Shown one piece after another: positions 2,855-31,200 of a stretch of 64,000 nucleotides of DNA. The notes under the pieces were generated by a model, which was not told the DNA's origin, did no database searches, and worked only from the letters and a program-made list of their open reading frames with translations. A program made the translations under genes and the position numbers. This DNA is from Phoronis australis (lineage: Eukaryota; Animalia; Phoronida), in assembly GCA_002633005.1 (NCBI GenBank), contig NMRA01000459.1:233047-297046 (forward strand), in the 5' to 3' direction. The first letter of the stretch is position 1. Each line of letters starts with the position of its first letter.

Positions 2855-4083
2855 AAGAGTAACGCGGAACGTTGAAATGCTCCCACGAATGCATTGCAAA
2901 TGGTGTGCTTTTAGGGTTGTGTATTTGTATCATTAAAATGGCCACTAGATGGCGCACAATATGTCGAATCTGTCTGAAAACCAAAAATGCCATCCTTTCT
3001 TTAAAAGAAAGCCATTTACCAACTTAAATTAAAATTCTTCGAGGAACTTCAGAGAAACAGAGGAAAACAAAAAAATGAAATTGCCACTAGGGACAGTGTT
3101 CATCGGATACATCTAAAAGTCGTCATCTTCTCTTGTTAACTTCATATATATACACATGCTAAATTTAATAAAGATCCTGCTGAGGGCTTAGGAGACACAA
3201 CTATGGAAGCAAAACAAAACCGCCACTAGGAGGTGCCACAGTAGTCGAAGTCATCAGAAAATCATCAGCAACCATCCCCTTCAAAGAAAGAACATACATG
3301 CCAACTTTCACAATCGTCCTTAAAGTGGTTTGGTTGACAGAGGGACAAATGCCACAAAACACTCAAAAAACAGCAAAAAAAGCCACTAGGTAGCGCAAAA
3401 AACTTGAATCAATCCGAAGATGAATGGCTAGGGTCACCTCACTAATGGATGCCAATGTGCCAAAGTTTGTGGAAATCCGTTGAGTACCTTTGAAGATACA
3501 GTGATAAACGTAAAAAACTGAAATTGCCATTAGGGGGCACACCGTTAGACCCATCTGTCCGAAAGTCGTCGTCTATTGTCACATTCACTAAATTTAATAA
3601 AGTTGCTGAAGAGCATTCAGGAGATACAGCCATGGGCGCAAAAACAAACAAAACTGCTACTAGGAGGCGCCACAGTAGTCAAAGAAATCGGAAAATCATC
3701 GTCAACTGTCTTCTTCAAAGTAAGAATATCCATGCAAATTTCCACAATCGTCCTTAGAGTGGTTTGGTTGTTAGAAGCAATCCGAAAACGAGAGGATAGC
3801 GTCAACTCATGTATAGATGCCTATGTACCAAATTTCATGAAAATCAGTTGAAGACCTTTGAAGATACAGAGGCAAACGTAAAAAACTAAAATTGTCACTA
3901 GGTGGCACAGGGGTATCTGGGTTGGTCCGAAACTCATCGTCCTCTGTCGTAGACGGCATCGGAACACACCTGCCAAATTTCATACAATCCTGCAAGGGGT
4001 TTAGGAGATACAGCCGCAGACGCCCAGACAGACATGACGGCAGTATGCGACCACATACAAATAATATGTGGGAGCATAAAAAT
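2855..4083 (-). mobile_element. Helentron-associated non-autonomous element (HINE/DINE-1-like), copy A
   Basis: Subterminal ATGCTCCCAC near 2878 and GTGGGAGCATAAAAAT near 4068; internal degenerate repeats built on GCCACTAGG; homologous to copies at 27.8 kb and 43 kb. Confidence 0.75.
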
Positions 4084-5019: not shown

Positions 5020-5190
5020 TTACTCCCTGTCAACAGCCGACATGTCACCATTACTCTTGTTGTCCCTCTTTGTTGTCAGCAGACATGTCAGCATTACTCC
5101 AGTAATCTTTCCTTGTTTACAGCCGACACATCAGCGTTACTCTAGCTATCCCTCTTAGTTGTCAGCTGACATGTCAGCATCTCCATTATC
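5020..5190 (-). repeat. Degenerate repeat, about 43-bp unit x4, spanning the SRA gene stop codon
   Basis: Minus-strand unit about AGTAATGCTGACATGTCTGCTGACAACAAAGAGGGACAACAAG. Confidence 0.7.
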
Positions 5191-8100
5191 AGATTCTTCA
5201 CTCGCCACACATTCGTTTCCCTCCTCAAGCTGTTCAGTAACCATCTCTTCTTGGTCACCAGAGGGAGTCTGTTCATTGCCTGGTGACAGGGGAGGCGACT
5301 CCCCCAATTCAGATGGTGGCTTGGACAGTGCATCTATTTCTGACCCAAGCTCTGAAGATGGTGTGTCACTGCTGTGTTCCCCTTCACTGCCGAGACCAGA
5401 ATCTTGACTACTGCATGTGTCGTCCATTTCTTCCTATATTTAAAGGAAAGTTACGGTCTTCTAAATAAACACATTAATGATGTCTAAGTGTGTAGTCAAC
5501 GCATACAGTCAGTAACAAATTTTTGAGTCATTACGTTACTGGCATTTACTAGTAATTGAATCAATACTTTCTGAGGAAGCCAAAGTACTAGGTACATACC
5601 AGGTTTCAAATGGCTAATTAAAAATGCCAAGATGGTACATATTTAATGGGAAATATCACATTCCCAAAATATACATAAAGTTTTGCATGATCGTTTCTTT
5701 TTGTTGAATTTAACTCATCTTTTATGGGCCAGTAACTTAATATTGTTTTCCCACTATTACTGAAAAAGTAATAAATAGACCTACAGAACAACTGGAAGTG
5801 CCAAACAGATTATACAAATGATATAATGAGCATGAAGTTTATTAGTAATTTTAGAAACCTTTTTAATGTTGTGAGATACAGTTTCCGGTTTTAAACTCTG
5901 AGGAGTGAATTGAGAACATTGATTGCACATATGACAAGAATCACACACTTGAAGTATCCTTCTCAGGTATTGGTTATTTGAGCTTATGGCTCTTAGTACC
6001 GTGGGGACATCTGTTGCAAAAGTCAACAATTATATTTTTTGTTCTTATGGAACATAATTAATAACATTCTGGAACATGAATCATGCGATACCAAACCTTT
6101 TATGAAGGAAAATGATAAGAACTCGATTAGCTTACCTTGGGTTTGCACTCCCAGGGTGGAGGCGCCTGATTCGTCAGTCGCTTCATGGCAAACTTCCAAA
6201 CACCAAACCCTTCAACGCCAGTGGTAAACCAAGCCTTCTCCACAGAATACAAACCTAAATGATGTCATAAAAACGGTCAAAATCTTAACAAAAATAGCAA
6301 GTAAAAACCTCAAGGGTTTGCCACACCATCTGTCCAAAAATCTACGTCAGTCGTGGTTTTCTCATCAGGAACACGTCTGCCAACCAAATTGTCATAATAA
6401 TCCTTTCAGCGGTTTGGTATTTAAAAAGGCTGATGACAAAAACAATCTAAAACATAATAAAAAGGGTGCAAAATACACCAAATCGGTCTGAAACTGGAAA
6501 GGTATGGTCTGATGGTCACCTTCTTAATAGAAACCTATTTGCCAAATAACGTGAAAATCCATTAACTCTGAAGATACAGAGGCAAACACAAAAATAGCCT
6601 GACGCTATTAGGCACAGTGGTAGTCTGACTGACCTGAAACTTGTATTAACCTACATGAGCTCTATAGGCACACACCTGCCAAATTTCACAAAGCTCCTCC
6701 AAAGGATGAAGGAGATGGCCGCAAATGCAAAAAAACAAAATTGCCTTCTAGGGGATGCCCGTCAAAAATCATTGCCAGCTGTTGTCTTCTCATCAGGAAC
6801 ATGTCTACCAATTTTCATAAAGATTGATTGAGCGGTTCAGCAGATAGAATGGAAAACGCCAGAAAACGAACTCGAAAAGAACAAAAATGGACACCAATGG
6901 AGGCAAGATGAGTCGAATCTGTTCAAAACTGGAATTGTACTGTCGCCTCCTTAATACAAACCTATTTGCCAAGAACATCCATCAAGGAACTCCAAAGTTA
7001 AAAAGGCAAATGTAGAAAGGTGAAATTGCCACCAGGGGGCACAGCCAAAGCTGGATCGGTCAGAAACTGGAAGCCATTTTTCCACAACTTCATAGGAACA
7101 CAACTGCCAAATCTCATTAAGATGCTTCAAGGGGTTAATGAGACACAGCAGCATACGCCGGAAAGATATGATAACACTCACCAACATAAGCACCCCTAAA
7201 AATGGCAGACGACGGAACAGATTTCACTTACACATTCTATTAGCAATATCGTTGAAACAGAAGCTGCTTTTGCTAAATTTCAAAAAATTATAGAATGAGG
7301 AAATCCTTAAACTTTTTAAAAGTGCGCAAGACTGAAAATTTCGTATCTAAAATTTCAGACCACCAAATCCCTAAAATATCCAAGTTTCCTATTCATAAAA
7401 TCTTTCTTCCCGTCTTACCATCATATCTGTAGCCACTCTCGGGAGCAAAGGGGCTCCTTAGTTTGTACCCTCGTATGACCCGCACTGGATTACCCGTCTC
7501 AACGTTCCTGCTCAGAGCAAGGTTGCCCCTTGTGAGGGTCTGGTCTTTCGACTGGGGGGCAGTACGTAGATTCTGAAATATTTGTTCAATAAACTGTAAA
7601 ATTTCAGTTAGCGCTAAGGGCTAGGAGAACAATCAAACGTCGACGAACGATGGACACTTTTGGACACCAAATTTTAAATTTGACTTGAAGCTGGGGATGC
7701 GCTCTTTCCAAGACTTGGGCTTTAACCTGGGTTAATTTGCTATTAAGGCATAAGTACAACTGAGAAGATGAAGTTTAACTGAGGGAGAATGGCCAGGCTG
7801 GATTTCATAGTTTTATTTACTCGTTCAGGAACCGACTGTGAGGCATGAAAAAACAGACTCAACTTCTCAATAGCTACAGCAACATCAGTAGTTCTTGAAA
7901 AGTTGAGGAAAGCTTTAATATCATTTTCCCTTTGGTTCTTTGCAAAAGGTGAAAAAATAACGTAATGTAAAAAACAATGACTAGAAAATTACCCAACCAT
8001 TGAATTTTTGAAATAACAGAAATTTTTGAAAACTACTGATCCTGTATTTTGACAGTCACCTTTGGCTTGTTTGGAGTTCCTTTAAGATCACGCCCACCCT

Positions 8101-11100
8101 CCCCAGTGTAGGTGAAGTATTCGCCCATGTCTACATCATCCGCATAGCCACCTGACAAGGCGATAGAGTATGCCCCTTCGTGGCCACCATGAATACCCGA
8201 CACCGGCGGCCTGCAACACATAAGAATGAAGACGCATGAAGCCCAGAGTTATACTAAATCAGTACCTTGGGCTTGTTGGGTGTTCCTTTCAGATCTCGAC
8301 CACCTTCCCCAGTATAGGTAAAGTAGTCGCCCATATCGACGTCATCTGCGTACCCGCCAGAGAGGGCAATAGAGTATGCACCGTCATGACCTCCATGTAT
8401 GCCTGCAACAGTCGGCCTGCAATACCCCCCAAAGACTGTTTAGATTACAATAAACAACTTGGAACGAGTAAATATTGCAGCGTCAAGTGACTGAAATTTA
8501 AACTAATTGGGTGGTTATGGCAGAGTTGATTAAGAGATCAGTCCTACACTTGCAACCTTATGAATTAAAAACCCATTCCTTCATTCTCTTGGAGGGAATG
8601 GAGTTTAATCTCAGTTCTCGATAAGATCACCACCTCCACACTGACTGCTCTCGGCTATAACAATTGAGAAATGTTAGTTCTGGAAATGTGAGAAAAAATT
8701 TAGAAACAGACAAAATTATTGTCATAGCAAACTCCAATTTATCTTGGTTACCAGAGCAAAACAATGGGTTTAGTGTATTATACTGCAGTTCAATTTGTAG
8801 AGTGACCAACAGACAGTATGCAAGAAACGGAGTGTCATCTTCGACCTTTTCAAAGTACTTATTTCTACACTAAAAAACTTTCAGCTATCTGACTGGCAAT
8901 TGCAGGAGACACACATATGTTGCAATTGTACAGCATTAGGCAAATACAGATCTAGGATATTAAAATCCCTGAATGCAATAGAGTTGTAACCAAATGAAAA
9001 GGTGAGCTTTGCTTTTTAATAGTTCATTACCCACAGAGACTTCTAGCCACGTTTTGAGTTTCATTCATATAAATCTAGCGGCCAATAGCGGGCACCAGTC
9101 ATAGGCAGCTACAATGAAGAAATTTTCTAAAAACTCTGGAGTACTTCAACCATCCAAGTTTTAGTTTCAAAGTGGAGGACTAATTAAAAAGCAAATTTGC
9201 TGAGAAGTTAGTCTGTTCTAACGCCTTTTGCTCATTCTTCAAACACTTCAGCCGTTCAAAACAAATGTAGCACTTAAAATATTCACATTACAAACAATTT
9301 TTACCTGTGAACGCCTGCTGCGCAGGCTTCCATTCTCATCAGCCAATATGTGCCCACGTCAACGCCATCTACTGGGCCATAGAAATTTTCTCGAAATTTG
9401 GGAACACGAATTCTTGGTGAGTCATCATGTGCTAGGTCATACTCTACTTGTTCTTGTATGTCACTGACATCAAGTGCAGCCTAAAAAGATAAAGTTATTA
9501 TTATGTAACGCTCGCCACTTCCAATCAGCTACAGCAACGTTATGGTAGTTATTAAAAAAGTTGAAAATTTTTTCAGAATTTGCCTCGATTGCCTGAACTA
9601 CGAAACATGAATGCGAAGACAGGAACCATTAGAAAATTCAGCGACCTCTTTGAGTATTCAAATTTTAAACAATTGTAAAACAAATTTAGGTCAATATGTC
9701 ATATGTCAGTCACAAAAATTGTACTAAAATCTGAGAAAATTTTCGAAAACTCAGTGCAAAGTTGCAAAAATCATGTTAAAAGACCCGAGTGTATAGTAAA
9801 CTGTAACCATCAGAATTCCCACAAAATATATTTCAAGAGCATATGTAAATTTTTATCAAACCTTTCCCTGCAGCCGGGAAGACCTCCTTGCTGGTCCTGA
9901 TCGGATTGACCCGTAATTCTCATCTTTTATCTGTTGTTTTGCTTTCTTTTCAGGCTGCCACTCCTTAGCATCACTCTTTCTTTTGAAGACAGCAGGTTTC
10001 TTGATTACTTTGAAAGGGAGTAGGAAGTCTTTCTGCAATAATATGAAAAAGTAGGAATCGTGAATTTACATTGTGTTGTGAACTGTAATGCAACCGCCAC
10101 ATCACCTGCCTTAGCCTTAGAACAGTTAAGGCGGCAAATCTCAATCTTGTCAACATGGTCAGGGCAGATTAGTTGCAATCAAGTTGACGATCATGGATCA
10201 TGACAGGGTCACTCACCTCAACGTCCCTGACACTGTTCTCCACAGCGCCTCCATTGCAGTGCAAATGCCAAAAGCTCATGGGACTTCTTGTCCTATGATA
10301 GTGGATGCCTCTGACACTGGTGAATATGAACACCAGTTTGTTACCCAACATGATGTATAGTGTTAATGAAATGCATGATAAACATTTTGGTGTACTGGTA
10401 ACACTAACTTAAATCTTAATTGGGGTCCCACGTTTTGAGAAACAATTTCAGTTACCCACAACAGAATAAACAATTATCCATTAAACCAGGGTTTGTATGT
10501 AATGCCTTGCAATCATGCAGTATTGTGATAATTAAACAACTTGTTTACTTTAGAAAAGTTCTGAGTTCAAACTTGTTCTTAAACACTCCGCAGCTCATCG
10601 TGAGCCAGGCTTATCTCACAGGCGCTTGGGTTTATCGCAAATGACGTCACTCAATAATATATATAAGAAAACATGAAGGTTGGACACTCGAAATCTGTTT
10701 GCTGAAAATTTTCCACTCAAATGTGCATGGAACTCTATGAAACTAGCATCGAACAACTATTAGAATGCCTTCTTTCATTCGATCTCTTCAAATTGCCTTC
10801 GAGTGGCGATTTGGCGACAAAAATGCCAAAAGAATGCCAAAATCACAAATTCAAGGACCTGATTCCGTGATATCATGGCAGACGGTCTTCGCACATCCGG
10901 GTTTTTGACGGACGCTCCCCGAGCTAAATCCGAAGGTCTAATTTCGCGCGGCTTTCATCGTCAATCCCTCGACTACTTGATCATGAAAACTGAGCAGAGA
11001 GCACTTTATTGCCAAATAAATGTAATTACTCACATATTTGTGTCAAATATAAATTATCCTGATACTGTATTGATATGCGAAGTTTTTGTGTACTGTGATT

Positions 11101-12352
11101 TCATATGAAGGTTTTACTTTTGGCCAAAACCATTGAGTTAACTCGTCGGCCACGCGCATTGTAATACTTGCACGGACAGCGTTTCCTGGACGAGTGTGTT
11201 GTGCTTCAATCAAAAAAGTGCGTTATGTCAAGATGAGAACCAAGATACACCAGTTTATGTAATAAATTTCTAAGTTAAGGGCGAAAATGAGCCGTCAGTG
11301 GAATAAAGTTACAAATAATCATTAAAATACTAACTTTAACATTCTCAATTAGTTGAGTTTCGGATTAGAATTATTGAATTTGAAATATTGGTTGCTTGCT
11401 CAAACTCGAAGTTTCATCTACGTCAGGCGTACAAGTTGAAGCACAACTGAAATCCGCCATGTTTACTATTTCAGGTCCTTGAATTCAGAGTTTTGAGATT
11501 GTTTTGGAAATTCCATCGCCACTTCACCACTCACGAAGACAGTTAATGGGATCTAGGAAAGATAAGGCTTTGTTTATGCAATACCAGGCTAAGGGAGGTG
11601 CACGCAGATTTTATTTGGATTTTGGACGGTTGAAGTTGGGAGCCTCGGCTAAACAGATTTCGAGTGTCCAACCTTTATGTTTTCTTATATATATATATAT
11701 TGTGACGTCATTTGCGATAAACCCATGCGCCTGTGGCTTATCTCAACAAAGTCTAAGCTCCATTCCTGCGACGAAACAAATCCTGCTGTGGAGATTTGAA
11801 TGATATGCATGGCACTGGTGGTTCTGAAAATTTGGGACCCCTGTCACTGTCACGGGTCCATTTAGGCACAGAAGATGCGATTATAATTTGAAGGTCCAAA
11901 ATGAACTGGGCGCATTAAGTTAGTGTAAAACTTTCAATGTAAGGATATAGTGAACCACGACTGTCAAGTTTATTGTCGGTGTCGAGTTGATTGTGCGGTG
12001 ACCACCCTGCCTGCCTGTAGGCAATGACCATCGCCTCTGTTGGCCCGAGGTGGTTGGTGCGAGGCATAATTCGCCGAAAAGCTTCCTGCGTACAGAGCGC
12101 CTATAGCCTCTACATCGCCTCTGGTTCGGGCCAACAGAGGCGATGGTCATTGCCTAGCCTGCCTGATAACCACGAGGCACGACCACGCCAACAGCTGACT
12201 GACTTAGCCCAGCCCTAACCCGGACACACAACCCGACTCACTGGGATTGTACGTTCAAAACTTACTGTCAATCCTATCTGCGACAGTATTTTCCTATTGT
12301 CTTCTAGATTTTTCAGCCTTCGTTTCTCATATTCTGATAATCCTGCAGGCAT
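5155..12352 (-). CDS. Standalone SRA/YDG-domain protein, about 378 aa: N-terminal helix, basic linker, SRA domain, acidic tail
   Basis: Hand-spliced GT-AG exons with consistent phases: 12352-12266, 10032-9862, 9480-9305, [8416-8266 or 8210-8060], 7572-7419, 6254-6136, 5433-5155 (TAA). SRA motifs: [16 protein letters not shown]...[65 protein letters not shown]. No UBL, Tudor, PHD, RING or SET region, so no UHRF1 symbol is given. Confidence 0.9.
6270..7203 (-). mobile_element. Degenerate HINE-family copy in SRA gene intron 5
   Basis: Shares blocks such as gaagatacagaggcaaac, cacacctgccaaatttca and aaattgccaccagggggcac with copy A; boundaries approximate. Confidence 0.6.
8060..8210 (-). CDS. 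SRA gene exon 4b (one of two mutually exclusive duplicate exons)
   Basis: 151 nt, ttgcag acceptor, gtgact donor, phase 2 to 0. Encodes (R)[50 protein letters not shown]. Confidence 0.88.
8266..8416 (-). CDS. SRA gene exon 4a (one of two mutually exclusive duplicate exons)
   Basis: 151 nt, ttgcag acceptor, gtactg donor, phase 2 to 0. Encodes (R)[50 protein letters not shown]. Confidence 0.88.
10617..11735. mobile_element. Non-autonomous DNA transposon with about 84-bp terminal inverted repeats and 8-bp TSD (P- or hAT-type), SRA gene intron 1
   Basis: Termini CACAGGCGC(T/A)TGGGTTTATCGCAAATGACGTCAC...GGTTGGACACTCGAAATCTGTTT are inverted at both ends. GCTTATCT is duplicated at 10609-10616 and 11736-11743. 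Confidence 0.88.
12018..12156. mobile_element. 139-bp MITE with perfect 31-bp inverted termini and 9-bp TSD
   Basis: TAGGCAATGACCATCGCCTCTGTTGGCCCGA and its reverse complement; GCCTGCCTG at 12009-12017 and 12157-12165. Confidence 0.85.
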
Positions 12353-12753: not shown

Positions 12754-15700
12754 ATGCCTTTTGGTGTGAGGCCAGTTTGTGCGACATGTAAAACCACCAC
12801 TTCAACAATGTGGCGAAAGGGAGCCAGGTGCGAAGTGTTGTGCAATTCCTGTGGATTGAAACAGCTTGGCGGGAACGTTCGACCGATATCCCCGGCCATG
12901 TCAACAGACGGGACAAGTTCAAATTCAAGTGGAAAATCGGAGAATAAAAGTAATAGCAAAGCAACGGATAGTTCATCAATTGACAAAACAGTAGCCTTAC
13001 GAAAAAGTGCTAGAATCAAGCCATCGAGAAGCAAATCTCAGACAAATACAAAGACTTTGTCAACAAAAGGAAAAAGCAGAAGGATTATATTCAAGAAAAA
13101 TGTATGTTTGAACAGAGGCGTCCTCAACTTCTGACCGTCCCAACATATTATATAGAATACTACAAGGTATGACATTCCGGACTAGAAATTCCACCGGTGC
13201 TTCACTTCAGCTGTCCATAGCAAACACAAAACTCTGTTGTATTACTGCAGGTTCACTAGCTAGGCCTCTAGAAGTACTCACCAGTTAAAACACAGCTATT
13301 CCAGCTCCAATAAAACCCAATCCAGGTACCCATCCCTGACATATAAATTTACTCAAAATAGGGGTTCAACAAACCACAAGGAGTTGTTCTTTCTCCCAAT
13401 ACCAATTACAGTGTCCTTGTCCTCTGAGTTAATTACAAATTCGCAGTCAAAGCACAAAAATCTTCCCAAAAAGTCGCTGGGTACTATCGGTATGCTTCAT
13501 GTGAGTTGGGTCAAGGTCATGTAGGGTACGTAATAATCCGATGAGTTATGAATGTACGTCAATTGCCAGTACATCACAGAAGATTTACGAAATGGTCTGA
13601 CTTAATGTGGAGGGTGATTTTTGTGCTTTGACCGCGAATTTATTGCGAACTCAATGGAGCAGGACACCATAAATGGTTTTGGGAGAAAGAACAATTCCTC
13701 ATGGTTTGTTGAACCCCTGTTTTGTGTAAATTTATTGAGTTTGGTGTTTGCTATGGACTGCTGAAATGAAGCACCCGTGGAATTTCTAGTGTCATACCTT
13801 GTACTATACATATAGTGTATTGGGGATGATCAGAAGCTTAAAACACCCGTGTGTTTGAAAAGAAAAGTGTAAGAAGATGACTTTGGCCAGTGTTGATTTG
13901 AAATCTTTGGTCACTAACTTCAATTTTTGATATTTGTTGTGAGTGCTGACATTTTAGTATCTGGCTGTGCCGACATTGCCATGGTGACAACTATTACTAA
14001 GTCTCCCGGCTACGGTGGAAGCTTTTCAGTGAATTATGCCTCACACTGATTAAACCATCAAAGCCGCGTTGCTATGAGCACCCTTTGTGCATAGAGGGAC
14101 ACCTTAGGAGGCCATTGATGTCTTTGATTCCTTCCAACTGAAGAAATTATTTTGTAATCAATCTTTTTTCAAGCAGTCCTACATTCAGTTGCCGATTTGG
14201 GCTATTTTTACATTGCTCGTGCCATGAGATATGATGTCCTTCTATGGACATAGCAATGTGACTTCGATGGTTTGAATAGTGTGAGGCAGAATTCGTGGAA
14301 AAGCTATCAACTTAATAATGAAGGGCCTACTGCTAGTGGAGCTGGTGGCACTGTCATGCTCAAGAGATTCAGAAGTGTCTATTTTATGTACATATATTTG
14401 ACAATGTCCATATACATACACTCGCTTGTGTAGCCTTTGTGCAAGGGGACATGAGAAATACCTAGCTTTGAATGATTCTGATAAAAGTGAGCAAAGCAAA
14501 TTCTTACACAAAGTACTAAATTCGGTTATCAGCGTGAAAATAATACCTTTAGTCTGTTATTCTGCAGTTTGCGGAACCATCATATATATCAACCTTGAGC
14601 ACCAGTGAAATTAGGTACTTTCTTTTCGCCAGTCTCTGTTTTTGCCAATTGTGTTTGCTTTTTAGAAGGTGGCGTAGCAATTGCCGAGATTACCCAACCT
14701 GGGATTGGAAGCAGCAACCACCAATTAAACCAGCGAGCACGTTAAAGGGTCACGTGATTCGCTGGAAGCACGTCTACAACAATTACACACAGTTTACGAC
14801 AAACTGTCAGAAGTGGTTTTACTTAAGTTTGTAGTTTGAATTAATTTATTTGTTACCACTGAGCCAAAGTTCTTTTACAAAGTTGTTACCATCGTCCACA
14901 ATTACCATACGAAACCATTATTAAATCGACGTTTGACTTTTCTTTGTATTACACTGGAGGGAGAGAGACAAGGTGTGAATGTCTCAGTTGCAAAAAGGCA
15001 TGGTTGGATGTGTTAGATATGTTGGACTTCTTGCCAGTAATGGTTTAGTGCCAAAGATTGAGGTGCGGGGTGCCTGACTTTCTTCTGCATCAGTACAATC
15101 AGGTTTCAAAAAAAATGACACCTTTTGACAGGAAATTGTTTTGCAGGCTGTAATAAAAAGTAAACCTCACTTTTCAGTCACATCATTTTAAGCTACCGAT
15201 TAGTATTCCTGATATTTTAAGTATTCATTCATGTTTTCTCTGTCATTTTAGCCAATCAAGTCACTGACATCTGTTGCGACTGTTACCACATCAGATTATG
15301 TGTACTATCAGGTGAGTTCAGTGTTCTGTTTTGACTCATTACTGTGTCGAGTTTAAATGTCATCGTGACTATTTTTGGCTTACTTGCATCAAGTTTGAGG
15401 TATTGGGAATGAATGGTTTATTAAACAAATTTTGGTAATATTCTAAAACTTAACACACAATCTCCCCACAGCATGGACATGGGGTATCTGACATGTACAT
15501 GAAATTTGTTATTCGATTTGAGTTTATATTTTGTGTTGTGAAGAACCCTGAAATTATGTGCACATTTTCTATTGTTTCTTGGTCAATTTTGAATTAACCA
15601 ATGTCCATGATTAGGCAAAAATGCCAGTATGGGAAATATTTGAGTAAAGCCGAGGTGCACAGAACAGTGAATCATTTGAAATTTAAACAAAAATATTTTT

Positions 15701-18700
15701 GCTGCAAACTTCTGATTTTGACAATAAGAAAATTTTTGATAACTACAATTTTGCAAATCGACCAATTGCTGCAAACTAAATTAATTGGATGCATTTTTTC
15801 TTTGTGCACGTGTTAATTAGTTATTTACTTTTAGGGTATCTACTACCAAGTTGGAGACATTGTATCCTTGCTTGATGACAACGGCCTGCTTTACTACGCG
15901 CAGATACGTGGCTTCCTTCAAGATCAGTTCACAGAGAAGAGTGCAGTGATCACTTGGCTGCTACCGACCAATCAAACAAAGAACGTTCATGAGTTTGATC
16001 CTTCCACATTCATTCTGGGTAAGTGCAGAGCTCCGCAATCAATGGCACAACTGTTTGTAAACTGGTTCAGCTTTCCAGAACAATTTCTGCCACAGGAATC
16101 TAATTGCACAAGATATTGGTTTCTGTAAAGCAAGTGCGTCGTATTGTTCATACATCACTGTACAATATCTCGTGCACTGATGAGTGATATCATGCATTAG
16201 CTGTTCCAATATATTACATCCCAACCAGTGTTCACCCAAGGCTCCGTTTTTTTTTTTGGCACCTTGCGATGCTACCAAACTAACAACACCCATTTGACAC
16301 TTTGAATGCTGCTTTTAGATCATAAGTTCTAGTTCTAAGAATTCAAAGAAAAAAGTGGTGGCAATAACCCAGTTTTGCTGAAAACCTGGATTGCTACAAA
16401 GATCTTATCTAGTAGTTAGAGGTTTACTGAATGCTGCTTCAGTAATATCACTGTTATCTTGGGACATCCCATTGTAACAGATAAAGTCTCCACTGAACAT
16501 CAAAAATGTGTATTTCACATCATCAGGCATACGTTTCAGTTTAGTTACACATGATAACGATCAATTTCATGTAGACAAAGGAAGGAAACACCCTTCTCCT
16601 AAGCCTGTCTCTAGCGAAGTGCCAAACACATACTATCACGCCCGCATGTCCACGTAACAAAGGCGCACTGAGACGCAACAAAAACATTAACATAAGAATG
16701 AATGAACAACAACTAAATAAGCATAACAATAAATGTTCCGTTGCTAATGTCCTGTCACACCATTTTGATGGCTAGTATCAAATGTTTCGATTTGATTTTG
16801 TGGCAGATGGCAAATTAAAATTCTGTGAAAAGGTCAACCTCGAGACAAAAAATTAAAATTGTGGCTACACTAATATTTCTGGTCTCATCTGAGAGCCCAT
16901 TCTCTCTAGTTTCAGGACACATATTTGACTGTCCTATATTTGGCTAAATGGACCCATTTTTGGAGGTCACTTCACCCTAAAAAATTAGCTTGATTTTCAT
17001 GTGTGTTACTAATTATTGTCATAAAAAGCTAATAATGGGGTTTTCACTATACTATCAAATTTGTGCAATCACATGAACCCCAAACTTTATAAAAAATAAC
17101 ATTTCAACTTTGGCACATCACTGACCTCTTGGGGTCAAAGGTCAACTCCTGGATATCATGGTGCCGTACGTCCAGCACAAAAAAGTTTTTAAAATTTTAG
17201 TTACGTTAAAAATTTTTAATCAAAATTAAAATAATTTCAGATTCTCTTGTAACTTGTTACTCAATACTATTGACCAAGATTTTGGATCCCAGTTATTATT
17301 CGTTTTGTCAGAAATTGTGTGACAAACATGTAACAAATTTGTACGTCCGTCACATACGGCCGTCACACCCATGAAATTGCAATTTTTCCGCCAATAAAAA
17401 TAGCCTTAGGTCATATTTTTACTTTCTAAACTTGCATGTTGATAAAATGTACCTCACACGCAAAAACTTTAAAACGATAAAATATTACAAAGGCAGCTTT
17501 AAAATTAAGTGAAGAAGTTGTTACAAGTTTTAAGTAAATGCATTGATTTTTTCAATTTCAAATGTATTTGCAGAAAAGTTAAAGTTTACAATGTCATCTA
17601 GTTATTCTTAGTAGAATACAACTTATGAAAATCAAACCGTTGGACCACATAATAAAATGTAAATAAAACAAAGTGTTAATTAAATTGGTGCCCCTTATTA
17701 GTAAAGAAAGGCTTAGCTTTTGGGAAATTCAAGATGCAAAAATATTCATACAAAAGAAATCCTAAGGTGTTCTAGAGTATACGAAAATAACAAGAAACTT
17801 AAAAGAATACATGTCAAGTTGCTACTGCACATGAATCAACATGTTATTTCTGCTCCGACCTGCTATGCTGTGTTTTGTGTTGAAAAAGCCGATATCGGGA
17901 ATTTTCCAGTGGTAAGAATGTCACCTACTTTATTGAAAATTTTTGTCACATCCTCACTGGCTGTAGGCACACTTTTTGAGTTTTTCAATGTATTGGGTCA
18001 TTGGGTGGCTTGTATGAAATTATTTCATAGCAAATGATTATATTGTCTCATCTTACATGTTTTTGATCCTTCAATCTTTTTGAGGAATTAGTCGACTAAT
18101 TTTTTTTCTGCTGAGTTCCGAGGAGATTAAACCACATTTAGAAAGGATAGAGGAAATTGTTGAAGACCATGTGGAGAACAGACGCAACCGGGAGAAGACT
18201 AAATATCTTCTGGAATATTCTCTGAAACTCAAAAAATGCCCTCGTGTATCAAGAAATTCATAATTACTGTACTTGCGCGTACTGTGATGTGGCATTATAT
18301 AAAGCATATCTTTGAATTTGAAAAGAAGGCATGAGTTAAGGAGCTGGATGAAAACCTAATCATTTTAATCACTAAATAGAAACCAGCATCTGATAAGTTA
18401 GCTCTACATATTCCTAAATCATAATCCTAAATGCAATTAATTTAAAATGTGGTGTTTTCATACTGGAAGACAGCACGGGTGATTTGAATCAAAACATGAA
18501 TGCCAAAAGTCGATGATGTCTTCTAAACCATATGCTTCACACTTTGTTTTAATAAGACACTGAAGTCCTGTTACTAATACTTTAAAAACATCACAGTTAT
18601 TACTTACATGGGCATGCATCACAACCATCGACAGCATGGACCAGAGAAAAATTTTATACAACTGCTAAGGGCGAGTTCTAATTTAAAAAAAAACAATTAA

Positions 18701-20644
18701 TTAAAATACATTTTTATGACAGTGATTAGTAATGTTTTAAACTTAATTTCACTTTTTATATTTGACGGTCATATTTACTGATTAGTTTTAAATTAGTGTT
18801 CTATTTAACGCTTAAAAACAGATTTTCCTGATAACTAACAGCTGTCAAATACAAAATGATTATCACTCTCATTCCCATCAATAATGCTTACCCTCTTCAA
18901 AAGGAAGTGAAGATTTTAGGTGATTGTTTTATATCTTTAATCAAATGTATTGAAAAGTTAAAATCCTAGAGTGTATATTCCTAGTATAGCCTTACCTCTG
19001 ATGATTTCGTGCAAAGGGTCAATCGGTGCATTTTATTTAAAAAACATTGAATTAGTGTCAAAAGACCAAAATAGCTTAAATGCTGCAAAAGTTTGAATCA
19101 TTCTGAATTGATATCTTAGTCAAAACAAACAATTTAGTACTAGGATATCAGAGCGTACGTCCATCACGCATGTCCGTCACACTAACTCAACTTATATCGA
19201 GCTTTTTGACAAAAATTTCTTAGCAGATATCATCAAAAAAATTAGTGTGTAGTACTTTGCAAACATTCCTTTAAATCATCATGTAAAACATAAAATTGTA
19301 AATTAATGCAACTCACAGAAAATTAACGTTAAATTTTTTTAAAAAAATTCAAATTCTCACCTCTTTAAAGACAATTTTCTCAGTCATATTAAAAGATAGG
19401 GGAAAAGTTGATACATGCTTTGAAAGCTATCAATGAGACCTATCCATTGATATGTTAATTATTTTCCTTGGGTGAACATTTTTTCACAATTGATGTTCTC
19501 TGATTGTACGTCCGTCACAAATGGAATTGCCCTTCTCGTTTTCTATTTTACTATTGTGCTTTGAATTTGGCCATTTTTACCTCAGTAGCTTTAAAGATAA
19601 AACTTTGTTTCATATACTGTGAGCCCATGTTTATATTTCAAAAAGCATAAAACATACAACGCTTTCCTATCATTAGTTCAAACATGCATACAGATTTTGA
19701 ATGTTCATACTGTTTGGCTGATTGCTTCATTTTAAGAATTAACATACTACTCCACCGATTGTGATCATTTGTCATTTTTCAACACTATTCTGTATGTTCA
19801 GCAACGCTTTGTCTCTGAAAATCTTCTAAGGACAATGTTGCTGGAATTAGAAATCATGTTTCCTCAAGATCAGTTAAAAGGATTCCAAACCTGGTTTTGG
19901 CCAATTAACAGATACTACAATCAATTTTCCCATCCAGTTCCCTCAAACAAAATAATGCTTTGTAACCCTTGACAACCCTCGACAACTCTCAAAAGTTTGG
20001 AGGAAAATTAATAGCTTCTTTCAAAGTTTGCTAAACGGGCAAGCGTGACCTACGCATTTGGCGAATTACACGGCAACTGTGGGAAAAGACCACACACCAA
20101 GGACCATAATGTCCAATCTGTGGTGCAGGGAGCATGAGCTTTTGGCTGATGCTTATCTTTAACTCGGAAGATTGACACCAATTATACATTAGCAGGTGAC
20201 AGAATGAGGATTGGTGGAAATCATCAAAACAGGGTTTAGTATCCTCTTAACACCCGCTATCAGGACTGCAGCAGGCTAACATTTACTTTTATGCTTGCAG
20301 ATGGTGTTGCTTTTTAGCTCAGCGCCTTCAGTATGACTGGCTGCCGACTCAATGTGACCAGTTGGCTGAACACTAGTCACCTGTACTATAATAACATTAA
20401 TTTATATTTTTATTCATTTACAGGACCTGAAGAAGACCTGCCACGGAAGATGGAGTATTTAGACTTTGTTTGTCACGCACCATCGGACTATTACAAACTG
20501 CACAACTCGCCCTATCCCACAATGCCCACGAAACAGGAACTGGGTTATATATGGACAAGCTTAGGAGGCGAGATTCGTGCATTGCCGACAACTGATGAAA
20601 TTTTTGGTTCACGATCTGATAACGTGGCTGATGGGACAGTCTGA
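12754..20644 (+). CDS. GATAD1: GATA zinc finger domain-containing protein 1, about 270 aa
   Basis: Exons 12754-13101, 15252-15311, 15835-16018, 20424-20644, all GT-AG and in phase. N-terminal CxxC..WRKG..LCNxC finger, then KGKSRRIIFK, YYAQIRGFLQDQFTEKSAVITWL and GPEEDLPRKMEYLDFVCHAPSDY, all GATAD1 hallmarks. Confidence 0.96.
13161..13803. mobile_element. Foldback/MITE-like element with long imperfect inverted arms, GATAD1 intron 1
   Basis: Left arm tacaaggtatgac...ctagaaattccac...gtccatagcaaacac...ggggttcaacaaacca...gtcaaagcacaaaaatc is mirrored at about 13617-13803; the left arm carries an extra segment of roughly 100 nt. No clear TSD. Confidence 0.75.
17160..19532. mobile_element. Probable DNA-transposon relic (Sola-like right terminus), GATAD1 intron 3
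   Basis: GTACGTCCRTCAC-type motif recurs at about 17166, 17341, 19155 and 19506; ends TGGAATTGCCC at 19532. Left end not located. Confidence 0.4.
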
Positions 20645-25259: not shown

Positions 25260-28200
25260 TCACTCGATCACTGTTTCAGCAACCAAAACATGTGGCATGA
25301 GTCTATCTCCTCTTTCAATTTGCTTCATGTTGTGTGCTGTGAAGAACTTTTTGGCATATTCGTATGACGATATCATTATTGCACACGCTGGTGCCACCTT
25401 GGCAATCCGAGGAAGTGTCCCTGGAATACGACAAGATTTGTAAGAACCCTGACCTCAACAAAACTTATTAAGAGCTCTAACTTGTGAAAGGGCAAGTTGG
25501 ATCAAGAGGAAACATCACAATTTGACAAAGATTTGATACAAAAAGCGCGACTAAATGTTAATTTCAGTAAGACTGTTTTATATTAAGTAGAATTCTTCTG
25601 CCTGCTAAGCCTAGAAGTAGCAACAGATGTCAATAACACTCAGATAGTCAATACTGGCTAAAGTACCTGTAAAAAGGATCAACCCACTGCAGCAGCAAAA
25701 ATCTTGGATAAGGTATGCCAAATGTTGACAATTAGAAAAATTTGATGTTTGCCCAGTATACTTTGAAAATTGCAGTATCTCTGACATAGGGCAAAACTTA
25801 TTTAAACAGCATACATGTACATGTGATATAGGACAACACTTATTTGCTCACACAGGATATTAAATGCAAGAAGGTTTCAGTGAAGAACATGAATAAAGAT
25901 CAACTAACAAAACAATGTCACGCACACTCTTCAGCTTCTTCACACACAATTTAGTTCCAATTATAATCAGACGTTTATTTGAATTGATGTTCTGTGCTGT
26001 TCACACTCTGTCAGTTTTCTGTTGTCTCATTTAAAACCCTCCCAGAATGTTTTACAACAAGATTGATGAAAGACAATGGCAGTTTTAAGAGATTATGTAA
26101 TGCATTCCTTTCTGCAAAATTAACACCAGGTGAGTTAGTTATTACTATGCAAAAAAATGAAACTAAGTTGAGTTCCCAGTGAACCCTACAATTTTAATCG
26201 GTTCAAATTTAACACAAAAATGCTATCATCCATTTATCAGGATGACTGTAGTCGGGTTATGTAATAGAATTAACAGGCTCAGACAAATCCTGATAACATT
26301 AATAGTTAATCCCCTGCAAAGATCAGAAAACAATGGTTGAGTTGATGAACAATTGGTCAACTCTAAGGGCTAGTGCAAACATAGAGCCGCAGGCATCGAA
26401 CGCAAATAACCTCAACTCATGGGTCAAATCTGCAACAAAATGAACCTGAAGACCTTGCCTCCTTGGGTGGTGAGGCAAATGTTTCACCTGTTGGATTTCT
26501 TTTACCTGGTGAGCATAAATTATCATACTAAGCAGGCTAAGAACCCAGTCAATTACTTTCGATAGCCAATGAAAATCAATTATTGCATCACACAGCAACA
26601 ACAAATATCTCTTACTCGCTGATTGTAACCGTGTGTACTACATATATGGCGATTTCTATCAAATCAGTGAGAAATTTGTCTCGCTATGTGCAGGGAACAA
26701 TAACATGAGATAATTTTTACTTTAGACAGATATCTGAGCTCAAAACTCTCCACCTACGCTGGGCCTAACACTGGCTGATAACAGATGACCAATGTTTTAT
26801 CAGGAACTTCAGAACTCAAAGCACACATCGTCAACCAGATAGCAGTGGTAGTCATAAAAAGACTTCATGGCATAACATCCAGAATTCAGAGACATTTGCT
26901 ATGGGTTTTGAATGTAATTTTGCTTATGGTGCGAAATTTTTTTTCAACAAGACAATAAGGCCCTATGGCATTTCCTGTTCAGTGAACCTAAAAGTCATCA
27001 ATACATGTCACATAAGCCAGGACAATACACAATCACAATTTTCGTAAGTAAACAAACCTGCAAATAGTCCAGCAACACCCCGTTGAGCATGCAGTCTCCT
27101 AATAAGTGACCAGGTAGACTCAATGTTAACATCTGAAAGGGCAAAACTCAGAGGTTATGCAAATGATCAAAACCCAAAACAATTCTATGTACAATAACAA
27201 CCTTCAGGAAGAACAGAAGTTACTGTATTTGAGAAGACTTTTGATGATTTTTTAGTCTTTATTAAACATTTATTAATAATTATGCACATGTATAAATTCA
27301 AATATCATTTCAAATTGAGTAAAATTACTGTTTTATATATTTTGACAAATTCATAAGCATTGAAAGCTTCTAGTCAACTGTTTAGTAAACACTTGTCAGT
27401 ATAATTTGCATTTAAAGTTATTTAGAACCCTAGAAAAATGGCCACATTTGGCTAACTTTGGTGCATCATATCTCAGAAATGGATTGGATTGACATGAAAC
27501 TTTCAAATGCTATGCATTGTGTGCTATTCTCAAAAACACCATTAGGTATGGTTATTAAAATGTTCTACTTTTGAGGGGCTATCAAAAAATAGCATTTTTA
27601 TGAGATTCACAATTTTTAATAAAACTTTCAAGACGCATAAAACCATAATGAAATGATATTTCAGAAAACTGTAACAATGTTTTTGACATCTAATCATCAA
27701 CAAGTAAAATTTAATAACGCTACCGCTGTTTTCCTCACAATGCATCTTTCTTTTATTGCAAAATTTTCCAAATAACAAAATATTGGCAAAAAGTCAAAAA
27801 GAGCAATGCAGAGCATTGAAATGCGCCCACGAATGCACCGCAAACGGTGTGCTTCTACGGTTGTTTGTTTCATAAAAAAGCCACTAGATGGCACAAAAAC
27901 ATCCAATCCAACAGAAAATGATAAAATGCCATCGCTTCTTTAAAAGAAAGTTATTTACCAAATTTCATAAGAATCGGTCTAGGAACTTCAGAGAAACGAA
28001 GGAAAACGGAAAAAGTGAAATTGCCACTATGGGGCATAGCGTTCATTGGATCAGCCTGAAAGACGCCGTCTGTTGTTAGCTTCATATAAATACAATTACT
28101 AAATTTAATAAAAATCATGCAGTGTGCTAAGGAGATGCAGCTATGGGGGCAAAACAAAACAAAACTGTCACTAGACGCCGCCACAGTAGACAAATTCTCT

Positions 28201-31200
28201 ATGTAGTCAACCGCTCTCTTCACACTGAGAACATACACGCCAATTTTCAAAATCATTCCTAGACTGGTTTGGTTGATTGAGGGGTGGACGCCAAAAGCAA
28301 ACTAAAATACAGAAAAAAGGCCACTAGGTGACACAAAGTACCTCCATTCCATCCAAAAATGGGGGAATAGCATCATCTCACCAATGGATGCCTATATTCC
28401 AAATTTTCTGAATATCTGTTGAGGACCTTTGAAGATACAGAGGTAAACCTAAAAACTGAAATTGCCACTAGGGGGCACATCGGTAGTCAGATGCGTCTGA
28501 AAGTCATCGTCATGTATTGTCAACATCACATAAATACACTTGCTAAATTTAGTAAAGATCCTGCCAACTGTTTAGGAGATACAGCCATGGGCGCAAAAAA
28601 ACTGTCACTAGGAGGCGCCACAGTAGACGAAATCGTTGCACAATCACCATCAGCCGTTCTCTTCAAAGTAAAAACATACATTCCAATTTTCACAATCATC
28701 CTTAGAGCAGTTTGGTTGATAGAGGGGTGGACGCTAAAAACAGACTCGAAAACGGCAAAAATGGCCACTAGGTGACGCAAATTTTGTCCAAACCAACCGA
28801 AAACGAAAGGATAGCGTCCTCTCACTAATACATGCCTATATGGCAAATTTTATGAAAATACGTTGAGGACCTTTGAATATATAAAGCATAAACAAATAAA
28901 ATTGCCACAAGGGAGCCACCAGTAGTCGGATCCGTCCAAAATTTCGCTCATGCCGTCCCATCCATGAAGGAACATAATGTGCCACATTTCATGAACATAT
29001 GTAAAAGAGTTTTGGAGATAGAGCATAATGTGTCCAACATATAAATATGTGGGCGCATAAAAATCAAAATTCTACAAGCTTTCTAAAATATAAAGCATTC
29101 TGGATATAAGATGCTTCATAACCTTAACAAACATAATAAGACTCAGACGATCACACCAAAGCATTGTAAGTCACACAACTACCTTTCTTAAAAGCCATAG
29201 TGCCCAGCTCAATCTGTCGGTGTGTTTTAATCACATCAAATGGAACAGTTAAAATGCCAGCAATCTGCAAAGAAATACAAGGCAGTGACATAAACATGCA
29301 ACAATTTCTTTGCTAAGCTGCTGTTTGCTCTAAATATGCGACAGAAATTTTAACACAGTTTGATTCGCCACTGACAGTGAGATTTTACAAAGTATTTTGT
29401 TTTGAATGCTTGCTGCCTATTCTCTGCTGGACATGTAATATGTTACAGGCATCGCCTATTTAGTTTTGACAGCAGATGGAGAAAGGTTTTAAAAACACAG
29501 ATGACAACCTGGTCAATTGTTTAGAATTCTGAGCAGCAGTGTCACACACAGTGATACACAATCCAATTATCTGCCAGGCTTTGAAATTGAAGTCATAACA
29601 GATGTGATAATTGCTCTGCTTCACATTCAAAGAACTTAATAAACTAGAATTCATGATAACGTCTAGTAGGTTGATGCTGATGGTTATTTCACATAATTAT
29701 GTACTGAAAAAGTACAAGATACTGTAGAAGGGGGGCGTTTTTTTAAAGATCAGATATGTGTAGCTTGTTGTAAACATGTAAGTGAAAGAGCGCCCCTTTC
29801 AGGAAACAATCCAAGACTTACTGTTCCAGATATGGAGCCGGCTAAGAACGTCTGGTAGAAGGTGGGCTTGGTCTGCTCCGACCAGCGCAGCTGGTAAGCC
29901 TTGAGCCACTCGTAGTTAAGCCAATAGATGGCTGAGAATGGAACGTCTCGTAGTAGAGTGGGACCCAGTCCACGCCAGAGAGACAGTATACCATCGCTGC
30001 TTATAGCCGCCCGAACTGCCACACAGATCTCCTTGTAGCTGTGCCGGTTAGACTGCAACTTGGTTCGGATCAGCTCTAAAGGGCTAATCACCGTCACCGC
30101 ACCAACTGAAAGTAGAAACAGATGCTTTAAGTTTCAAAGTTGTGCGTTAGTGTTTGAACGTGCCCACAATGTACATGAACTTACAGTAATAATAATGTTG
30201 AGAAAATTCAGTCTGTATTTGCAGAACAAGGAGAATTTGAACCCAAAAGAAAATTTATACTTCACAATTTTTTCACATAACAAAATTAATTGCAAAAATA
30301 AAACAAAGAACAACCACTGGCGCCACCTGTCATGAGTACACTGTGTCTGACAACCTGTGAGCTATTAACGGCACTCCGTAGACCAACTTATTGTGTGATA
30401 TTGACAAACTTCCATGGAAATCAAAATGATCCAAGCTCTATCCACAAGCACATCTCTTCTCAAATAACTAACAACCTATTACCTCCACCCTTATTTGATT
30501 GATTGACTTACTGCGTGCTATAGACCCTGCTGCCATCACAATGTACAGGGTGTCCCGTCTTTCCTCGCGGTACCCCATAGCATACTTTATCTTGTCGTAG
30601 GCAGTAAAGTAAATCATAGTGGCAGGCACTGCCATGATTCTAAAATGGAAGAAACATGTGATGAGTTGAAACTCGTCAACAACCATTTGATACGTCTCCA
30701 TTTTGGTCAATATGAATTCATATTAGATCAATGACCATCACTCTAATATCAGTCTGATCACCATTCATGGACCACCTATTTTAATCATTCGTCATCGTTC
30801 AGTAAGAAATCATATTTATTATCATAATGTGATGATAAGCCTTGAATGAAAACTTATATCAATCATTAATAGGAACTGTCATACCATACCATTCACAGGA
30901 ATCAATAGAAATGGTTGAAATAAATTCCTCCGAAGATCTTTCATGACAAATTAAAGTTAAGACTAAATTTCTTGCATAACAACCATAATCTTTGTAGGAA
31001 GACACACTGGCCAATCACAGGCAATATGATCATAGGTCAATCCCAGGGACTAAGACCATAAATACAATGGCCAATCACAGGAAACATGACAATAAAATAA
31101 ATGTTTCTGAAGGACCCAGTCATGCATAGTCTGTCAGTCCCTAAGAAACAAACTAGATTTTCCACAATGTAACCAACAAAGTACCAATGTCCTAAGATTT

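Follow-up and report, generated by a model that had tools for sequence, protein, structure and literature searches.

A live, mutually exclusive exon pair swaps the thumb loop of an SRA-domain gene in Phoronis australis

The window analyzed here, a 64,000-nucleotide stretch of a Phoronis australis contig (NMRA01000459.1), carries on its minus strand a gene of 378 codons, a length that is reached with either of two alternative exons and that rests on RNA-supported exons. Coding exon 1 (12266..12352, minus strand, as are all exons below) encodes a conserved N-terminal helix (Y-E-x-x-R-x-x-N...N...L-x-x-L-G), with 26/22/3 reads on its junction to 10032, and coding exon 2 (9862..10032), defined by RNA read junctions and AG/GT ends, encodes a basic linker. 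The SRA domain begins in coding exon 3 (9305..9480), which runs up to the arginine preceding the thumb, matches Pfam SAD_SRA positions 2-26 (E 4e-4), and is the shared upstream exon spliced to both alternative exons, A and B. Coding exon 5 (7419..7572), joined from both A and B, is the shared downstream exon and supplies the N-L-R-T finger tip (SAD_SRA E 5e-11). The domain ends in coding exon 6 (6136..6254; junctions with 10/16/6 and 13/18/6 reads), and the last coding exon (5155..5433) encodes an acidic tail up to the stop codon, past which RNA reads extend beyond 4700 as 3' UTR.

SRA (PF02182, SAD_SRA) is the single Pfam domain in the tested exons: exon A or exon B alone scores 45-47 bits against a curated cut-off of 30.7, and the structural model of a Patella homologue matches the UHRF1 SRA with a Foldseek E of 2e-17. 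UBL, Tudor, PHD and RING gave no Pfam match in the tested exons of the window or in five full-length homologues, and the gene thus lacks the UHRF1/UHRF2 layout, in which UBL, tandem Tudor, PHD, SRA and RING share one chain. Judged by domain content, it is a member of a separate SRA-only family and not UHRF1. The fold, as modelled for the Patella homologue, is that of the UHRF1 SRA (PDB 3F8J, 2ZKD, 3CLZ), to whose chains the thumb Val/Gly, the pocket Tyr-Asp-Tyr and the finger Asn/Arg all align, whereas the histidine of the HVAG thumb is replaced by Thr or Pro and the N-L-R-T finger follows a 6-residue insertion. The short SRA-only layout is also that of the Octopus 'YDG-OCTBM' protein, which is merely noted in PMC9476566 and said there to lack key CpG-recognition residues; an Octopus bimaculoides member (P0156) is among our homologues, and in octopus records the thumb is always of the T type. 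Compared by description, Uhrf1 of Cryptococcus neoformans (CNAG_00677) is likewise an SRA protein without Tudor or RING, and exon B matches fungal proteins of this layout, including a tremellomycete 'UHRF1-like' protein. The portion of the Cryptococcus report available to us (bioRxiv 10.1101/149385) describes selective binding of hemimethylated DNA and work with Dnmt5, and describes no exon pair for Uhrf1. The host CpG o/e of 0.64 and an excess of TpG are consistent with a methylated genome, and the SRA-only protein of the window is likely to be a methyl-CpG reader.

Residues of the N-terminal helix motif are 87-96% conserved among 65 homologues, and the Patella model places a helix at residues 5-23. 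This helix may resemble the CDCA7-type HELLS-binding helix (HLBH); CDCA7 was not among the matches when the helix was compared with the Atlas (best 0.76), with the representatives (three unrelated or unnamed matches) and with the PDB. In a quick tree of full-length sequences the gene branches close to Lineus and annelids, outside a group of molluscs (support 84), and in a tree of the flanks only it stands beside a chiton (support 83). The source of the gene is an animal distant from limpets and, to judge from these placements, probably a lophotrochozoan. A neighbouring gene has best matches that are at most 64% identical.

Between exons 3 and 5 lie alternative exon A (8266..8416; SAD_SRA E 4e-12) and alternative exon B (8060..8210; SAD_SRA E 9e-12), each of which encodes the thumb, the pocket and an initial portion of the finger loop, and between them is a spacer intron of 55 nt (8211..8265). 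By translation and alignment to the UHRF1 thumb, the thumb codons are P-T-V-A-G in A (8401..8415) and P-P-V-S-G in B (8195..8209). The original prediction of two 151-nt exons with intact splice sites and identical phase is borne out: both are 151 nt long with AG/GT ends, in phase 2 on entry and 0 on exit, and inclusion of A and B together, or of neither, produces a frameshift and an early stop. Our recount of the 50 codons also agrees with it, at 20 identical, 26 synonymous and 4 replacements, namely T/P at codon 2, A/S at codon 4, and D/E at codons 11 and 30, which leaves 46 of 50 residues alike. It had called both thumb changes non-conservative, which is right for T/P, a drastic change, and less so for A/S, a fairly conservative one. 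At the nucleotide level 118 of 151 bases are alike and the longest identical run is 11 nt; pS is 0.77, beyond JC correction, and pN is 0.044 (Fisher p ~1e-17), a pattern by which both exon copies are under purifying selection, as had been claimed. The pocket Tyr/Asp/Tyr, originally described as unchanged, and the finger residues are identical in A and B. That the variable residues belong to a UHRF1-type HVAG thumb is upheld by the alignments to UHRF1 and by the naming of the thumb in PMC9476566.

Raw RNA reads from three runs with the same species label (X1-X3) were used to follow the splicing of the pair, a further run (X4) being without cover of the exons, and a junction was listed only if at least 3 reads from 2 starts supported it. 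All four junctions implied by the predicted switch of the thumb were found, with reads per run of 8/10/0 for exon 3 to A, 2/9/5 for exon 3 to B, 9/7/4 for A to exon 5 and 4/7/0 for B to exon 5. Of the 65 junction reads overall, 38 belong to A (18 entry, 20 exit) and 27 to B (16 entry, 11 exit), and X1 and X3 each add 4 short-overhang reads whose loose letters match the B end. No A-to-B joint was listed among the 20 A exits of the three runs and no skipping from exon 3 to exon 5 among the 34 exon-3 exits; because these counts are small and joints with fewer than 3 reads go unlisted, double inclusion in up to ~28% of A exits would be compatible with the listing. Depth over the spacer intron is consistent with zero cover. 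A and B are a live, mutually exclusive tandem duplicated exon pair. Their use in the three runs was 17:6, 17:16 and 4:5 (A:B), differences that are not significant (p 0.16).

The reads also revise the protein difference between the isoforms. At position 8177 all 17 reads give GAT (Asp) for B codon 11, and the isoforms of the RNA-sampled animals therefore differ at three residues; the four originally counted hold for the assembly. The T/P and A/S thumb differences persist in these animals. Where reads differ from the assembly across exons 3-5, 11 of 12 variants are silent, which agrees with the purifying selection seen between the copies: all 4 variants in exon A are synonymous, and the 2 in exon B comprise one synonymous change and one E>D.

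A search for the exon pair in relatives, proposed with the original prediction, recovered the same switch. The isoforms X1 and X2 of Patella vulgata and the two isoforms of P. caerulea, each pair annotated to one gene, do not differ in length, and their only differences, at T/P, at A/S and at one residue of the finger loop, fall within the stretch equivalent to the exon (at the protein level). The DNA of a metagenome contig, L011, contains a predicted third tandem pair, a TVA exon followed across a spacer of 42 nt by a PVM exon, both 113 nt long, with 17 identical, 15 synonymous and 5 replacement codons between the copies, in a gene whose other introns measure 78-334 nt. Five Daphnia species carry T-type and P-type forms as gene paralogues. 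Most annotated relatives show one thumb form only: same-gene thumb isoforms occur in 1 of 30 clusters, the other 29 having none among the members listed (15 each for the four large clusters), and two exon copies occur in 1 of 50 metagenome loci. Most relatives therefore get by with a single thumb, whichever its type; among 158 thumbs, 113 are TVA, 14 PVS and 9 PVA. A coupling of P with a residue other than A runs the same way in 4 of 8 pairs and the opposite way in none, which falls short of significance once kinship is taken into account (p 0.125).

Taken as a whole, the reading we favor, at a probability of about 0.6, is that of a live, exclusive, thumb-swapping pair that arose by its own duplication, recurs convergently elsewhere, and yields isoforms that differ in wedging and flipping. 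Because the exons swap the thumb loop and the switch recurs in other animals, the two versions likely grip DNA differently; from sequence we would expect the difference to lie in the ease of minor-groove wedging and base flipping. The proline before the wedge valine would stiffen the loop at the cost of one side-chain hydroxyl and one backbone NH; the serine, adjoining the pocket-lining glycine, would add a hydroxyl. In SUVH5 the thumb glycine contacts the 5-substituent (PMC4740795). In a published simulation (PMC6816099), thumb insertion is an energy barrier to flipping and base specificity is tied to the finger loop, and the thumb changes are therefore likelier to alter flipping rate, dwell time or affinity than which base is read. 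Selection would then be keeping both thumbs in a genome, through duplicated exons in the window species, limpets and L011, and through duplicated genes in Daphnia. We more tentatively entertain the idea, somewhat less probable than its negation, that a methyl-DNA reader with two thumbs, T-V-A and P-V-S, and two modes of reading has evolved over and over in animals, the exon having been duplicated independently three times or more and the gene once. The two modes might correspond to hemimethylated as against fully methylated CpG, say, or to rapid scanning as against stable flipping; if the idea is true, splice choice switches the mode of the reader.

The isoforms might instead be redundant. On this view the exon would duplicate easily, a short spacer would give instant exclusivity, harmful changes would be purged from both copies simply because roughly every second transcript relies on either one, and T/P and A/S, each a single base away, would be tolerated alternatives invisible to selection. 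Either thumb is the sole form in many species, a tree of 124 rows requires a minimum of 10 changes in T/P state, and both T and P are seen across two assemblies of the amphioxus B. lanceolatum, observations that also fit near-equivalent states; one D/E difference is not fixed, and the runs do not differ significantly in A/B use. Such redundancy does not readily explain why three pairs differ in the same direction at the same two positions, which are only modestly variable (ranks 13 and 16 of 50; the chance of sharing any two differing positions is 0.008 in 200,000 draws), why Daphnia paralogues show the same T/P split, or why silent sites are saturated in both copies with neither decayed. We consider it unlikely, though the strongest of the alternatives to functionally distinct thumbs.

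The history of the pair bears on how much of this is convergence. Seven sites group the copies by species and two by copy, and four residues common to both window copies are found in 0-2% of 61 homologues. A clade of P copies is rejected by the AU test when the thumb columns are dropped (p-AU 3e-6) and is not rejected when they are kept (p-AU 0.195). The duplicated unit of L011, 113 nt against 151 nt in the window, ends at an intron absent from the window's exons and also seen in Mytilus models and at other loci. Because the copies group by species without the thumb columns and the units differ, a single old pair is less likely than several duplications in which the thumb changed convergently: the window pair probably arose by its own duplication, and the same thumb change probably arose convergently in other animals. 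Rather improbably, T and P exons could go back to an early lophotrochozoan or an early bilaterian, conversion having homogenized all but the thumb and most lineages having lost one copy or being annotated with one; the functional reading would stay and the convergence would fall. The T-then-P order in both the window and L011 would follow from such an ancient pair, as would the scatter of single P-type forms among molluscs and a brachiopod (P in Babylonia versus T in Nucella, P in Pomacea versus T in Batillaria, Solemya, Lingula) and the loci L020 and L042, whose thumbs are unlike although the 63 bases that follow directly are identical. Against it, in addition to the unit lengths and the test without thumb columns, RefSeq-type records of most relatives hold no second isoform, and recent gene conversion in the window is rejected by the short longest run of identity between A and B. 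As originally argued, an artefact of assembly, with two alleles placed in tandem, or a dead copy or pseudo-exon, suggested by the tandem layout and nothing else, is ruled out for practical purposes by junction reads and silent read variants from other individuals, near-saturated silent divergence and unrelated flanking introns.

The favored reading, a duplicated and exclusively spliced thumb exon, places the gene in a known class. Hemimethylated DNA is read mainly by SRA domains, and to our knowledge the contribution of residues beside the wedge valine is poorly separated from that of the finger loop. Natural isoforms that differ by two thumb residues (and one D/E) offer a ready two-protein binding comparison. 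The pair resembles tandem duplicated exon substitution, as presented in the parts of PMC5740500 and PMC9741552 that we could draw on, in having homologous exons that match in length and phase, a short spacer, a shift of frame when both are included, few and mostly conservative differences, and a probable history of repeated independent origin in orthologous genes. The cases stressed there are ion channels, transporters and muscle proteins, with UHRF or DNA binding absent from the part of PMC9741552 consulted; unlike them, the window pair encodes the loop through which a chromatin reader contacts DNA, and the same residue change recurs in pairs of its type. The splicing type is thus already known, and our literature search found neither mutually exclusive exons described inside an SRA domain nor such an exon pair for UHRF1. 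The same thumb pair was probably reached several times. This suggests that selection acts on the family of animal methyl-DNA readers, and it would be an instance of mutually exclusive splicing with residue-level convergence beyond channels and muscle proteins.

Exclusion may be enforced by the spacer itself. Every A in it that could serve as a branch point lies less than 50 nt from the donor, the distance given for steric block in the accessible part of PMC5740500, and A-to-B splicing is therefore likely blocked sterically, the branch point being too close to the donor; nonsense-mediated decay could act as a backup. The remaining five introns of the gene measure 381-2233 nt. A candidate stem, a perfect inverted pair of 13 bp on the minus strand (arms 8462..8474 and 7814..7826), brackets A and B; 13 bp is reached by 2% of 2000 Markov shuffles, and the stem is present in both the MFE and centroid folds, the z-score of the whole region being -1.6. 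As a possible competing docking/selector arrangement, positions 9284-9296 pair with both acceptors over 11-12 bp, a match that depends on G-U pairs and on the mutual likeness of the acceptors.

Transcripts of the SRA gene comprise seven coding exons, all on the minus strand: exon 1 (12352-12266), exon 2 (10032-9862), exon 3 (9480-9305), one of two alternative 151-nt exons, A (8416-8266) or B (8210-8060), exon 5 (7572-7419), exon 6 (6254-6136) and a last coding exon (5433-5155). All joints have AG/GT ends, every joint is present in raw RNA reads, and the product is 378 codons long with A or with B. The RNA data are three raw runs (X1, X2, X3; ~18-19% of each read) and one contig set, all with the species label. 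The four junctions proposed for checking in the original prediction were all found in reads: exon 3 to A (8, 10 and 0 in X1, X2 and X3), exon 3 to B (2, 9, 5), A to exon 5 (9, 7, 4) and B to exon 5 (4, 7, 0). X1 and X3 each hold four extra reads with 11-12 loose letters matching the end of B. Exon A takes 38 of 65 junction reads, and the A:B ratio does not differ significantly among the three runs (p 0.16), whose tissue and stage are unstated. Among joints in X1-X3 with at least 3 reads and 2 starts, none joins A to B or skips both, a threshold below which up to ~28% of the exits from A and 17% of those from exon 3 could go unseen (95% confidence). Bin depths over the 55-nt spacer are consistent with zero cover, and the frame shifts into a stop with both exons included, likewise with neither.

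The predicted codon counts were reproduced exactly (20 identical, 26 synonymous and 4 replacement among 50), with pS 0.77 against pN 0.044 (Fisher p ~1e-17). The longest run identical between A and B is 11 nt, and their 40 flanking intron bases match at only 15 and 10 places. That this live exon pair is real, expressed and mutually exclusive is close to certain. Against the assembly, the RNA animals show ~2% divergence in exon bases; 12 differences are listed in exons between 7419 and 9480, 11 of them silent. At position 8177, all 17 reads give Asp for Glu 11 of B, and the D/E difference at that codon is thus not fixed; this Asp is coded GAT, versus GAC in A, which indicates a point change rather than conversion. 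Among the four replacements between copies, T/P and A/S hold in the RNA animals, but the codon-11 D/E does not.

Any branch point in the 55-nt spacer would lie <50 nt from A's donor (other introns of the gene span 381-2233 nt). PMC5740500 gives <50 nt as the criterion for steric interference, and also names frameshift with NMD. Steric interference across the spacer would likely keep A and B from joining, and double or no inclusion would lead to frameshift and stop, possibly with NMD. A perfect 13-bp inverted pair (8474-8462 / 7826-7814) brackets both exons and is a candidate lead in exclusion; it was noticed post hoc, 2% of 2000 shuffles reach 13 bp, and the stem is part of a predicted fold with an overall z of only -1.6. 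Substitution of tandem duplicated exons, convergent origin included, is established (PMC9741552 and PMC5740500, both in part).

Pfam detects SAD_SRA alone in six exon translations (four with hits) and five full-length homologues; this makes it a gene other than UHRF1, belonging to an SRA-only family that has members in sponges, cnidarians, bilaterians and fungi. The protein runs from an N-terminal helix through a basic linker and one SRA domain to an acidic tail. The helix (12266-12352, minus) keeps Y, E, R, N, N, L and G in 87-96% of 65 rows, and we take it to resemble the HELLS-binding helix of CDCA7. Were that likeness real, it would make the protein an SRA-based adaptor for HELLS; searches on the link spoke neither for nor against it. 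The CDCA7 helix is defined, its sequence unprinted, in PMC11343034 (in part). Excerpts of PMC9476566 and its preprint mention an octopus member, YDG-OCTBM, judged to be without key residues; finger Asn and Arg are kept in our alignment. SRA-without-RING homologues are mentioned in PMC10538959 (in part), and in Cryptococcus a Uhrf1 that has only an SRA domain binds hemimethylated DNA (bioRxiv 10.1101/149385, in part).

Alignment to UHRF1 agrees with the original prediction that the duplicated exon encodes the thumb and 5mC pocket, and extends it to the start of the finger loop; pocket residues are the same in A and B, as predicted, and so are finger residues. T/P aligns to His and A/S to Ala of what PMC9476566 (excerpt) calls the 'HVAG thumb loop', with the wedge valine between them. 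The glycine after A/S aligns to human UHRF1 G448, mutation of which abolishes hemimethylated DNA preference (PMC12448856, in part) and whose SUVH5 counterpart touches the 5hmC hydroxyl (PMC4740795, in part). Thumb entry into the minor groove is confirmed (PMC7034832, in part); its insertion is an energy barrier to flipping, with base specificity sitting in the finger loop (PMC6816099, in part). The Patella P-type protein, modeled from a 65-row alignment (mean pLDDT 68, SRA core mostly 76-96), best matches UHRF1 SRA structures (E 2e-17). We infer from all this that the thumb difference would change ease of flipping or affinity between A and B. We favor, at a probability of about 0.6, thumbs that differ in function and arose separately; redundant isoforms are unlikely.

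Patella vulgata (XP_050413862.2 / XP_050413863.2) and P. caerulea (KAK6177055.1 / KAK6177056.1) each have, in the cluster listing, two equal-length isoforms of one gene. Known from annotated proteins, the two isoforms of either species are identical except at T/P, A/S and one finger-loop residue, and every difference falls inside the exon-equivalent stretch. The pair is thus recorded in public annotation; a search of literature listings, largely outside subscription journals, found no paper describing it or any mutually exclusive exons in an SRA domain. One of 50 metagenome loci, L011, has a 113 nt TVA exon, a 42-nt spacer, a 113 nt PVM exon and a shared 38-nt exon (other introns 78-334 nt), with 17/15/5 identical/synonymous/replacement codons from DNA alone. 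Speaking against a widely conserved pair, thumb isoform pairs are absent, among members listed, from 29 of 30 clusters (four partly listed), namely oysters, mussels, abalone, cephalopods, echinoderms, hemichordate, corals, insects and spider; loci L002, L007 and L020 have a single copy between both flanking exons. Five Daphnia species each have one TVA gene and one PVA gene. Thumbs of 158 representatives are TVA (113), PVS (14), PVA (9), others (19) or unparsed (3).

The window protein is 56% identical to Patella and 58% to its best match, Lineus; trees place it apart from limpets, with no phylum firmly supported. Across window and Patella copies, 7 sites group by species and 2, the thumb sites, by copy, and H10, A23, Y31 and P46, which both copies in the window have, are found in 0-2% of 61 homologues. 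One ancient pair combined with gene conversion is less likely still: L020 and L042 share an identical tract after differing thumbs, so homogenizing may happen, but on 27 rows the AU test rejects a clade of the four P-copies once the two thumb columns are dropped (p-AU 3e-6), though not when they are kept (0.195), and the L011 unit stops at an intron absent from the window copies and present in other loci and Mytilus models. Species grouping, rare residues, AU test and L011 unit together argue for at least three duplications. Thumb positions 2 and 4 rank only 13th and 16th of 50 by variability, and in 200,000 variability-weighted draws of 4, 3 and 5 differences, three pairs coincided at any two positions 0.8% of the time (the two limpets as one pair). 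T/P changes state at least 10 times on a 124-row tree (of 158 rows, 27 were dropped on grounds of length or parsing, and another 7 have neither T nor P), versus 18 when shuffled. These comparisons support convergence of the thumb change. Coupling of P with non-Ala may also exist, the evidence being suggestive (4 of 8 independent pairs, 0 the opposite way, p 0.125).

The L020 and L042 copies (L020:1961-2064, L042:2971-3075) come from one assembly, are near-identical (~94% alike outside) and carry PVS and TVA thumbs followed by 63 identical bases; L042 breaks off there, and they could be paralogues, alleles or a collapsed exon pair. Two Branchiostoma lanceolatum assemblies (proteins P0176, P0210) show 10 scattered differences, one of them P/T at the thumb, which may thus be a polymorphic site in this species. 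About 20% of homologues, among them many bivalves, abalone and Lingula, have Asn in place of the pocket Asp (position 185 of P0111 in alignment A2), a replacement that could alter base reading.

Intron 1 holds a fold-back element (10617-11735) with several 34-62-nt inverted arms; its reads, which map to both strands and differ at many places, point to a mobile element present in multiple copies. Dispersed repeats (2900-4050, 6300-7200; ~430-bp spacing, copies 60-90% alike) form a family, and sequence near 28000-28850 and 43900-44400 resembles it. N runs lie at 43359 and 57171-57621, none near the exon pair. A GATA zinc-finger gene, presumably GATAD1 (12757-20644, plus; Pfam GATA E 9e-8), stands head to head with the SRA gene, starts ~400 bp apart, with exon-like frames further on (15835-16128, 20318-20644). 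SLC25A39/40-like carrier exons (best hits <=64% identical) and exons, recognized by eye, of a tetraspanin-like neighbor lie at 29750-30133 (minus) and 35913-37663 (plus), respectively.
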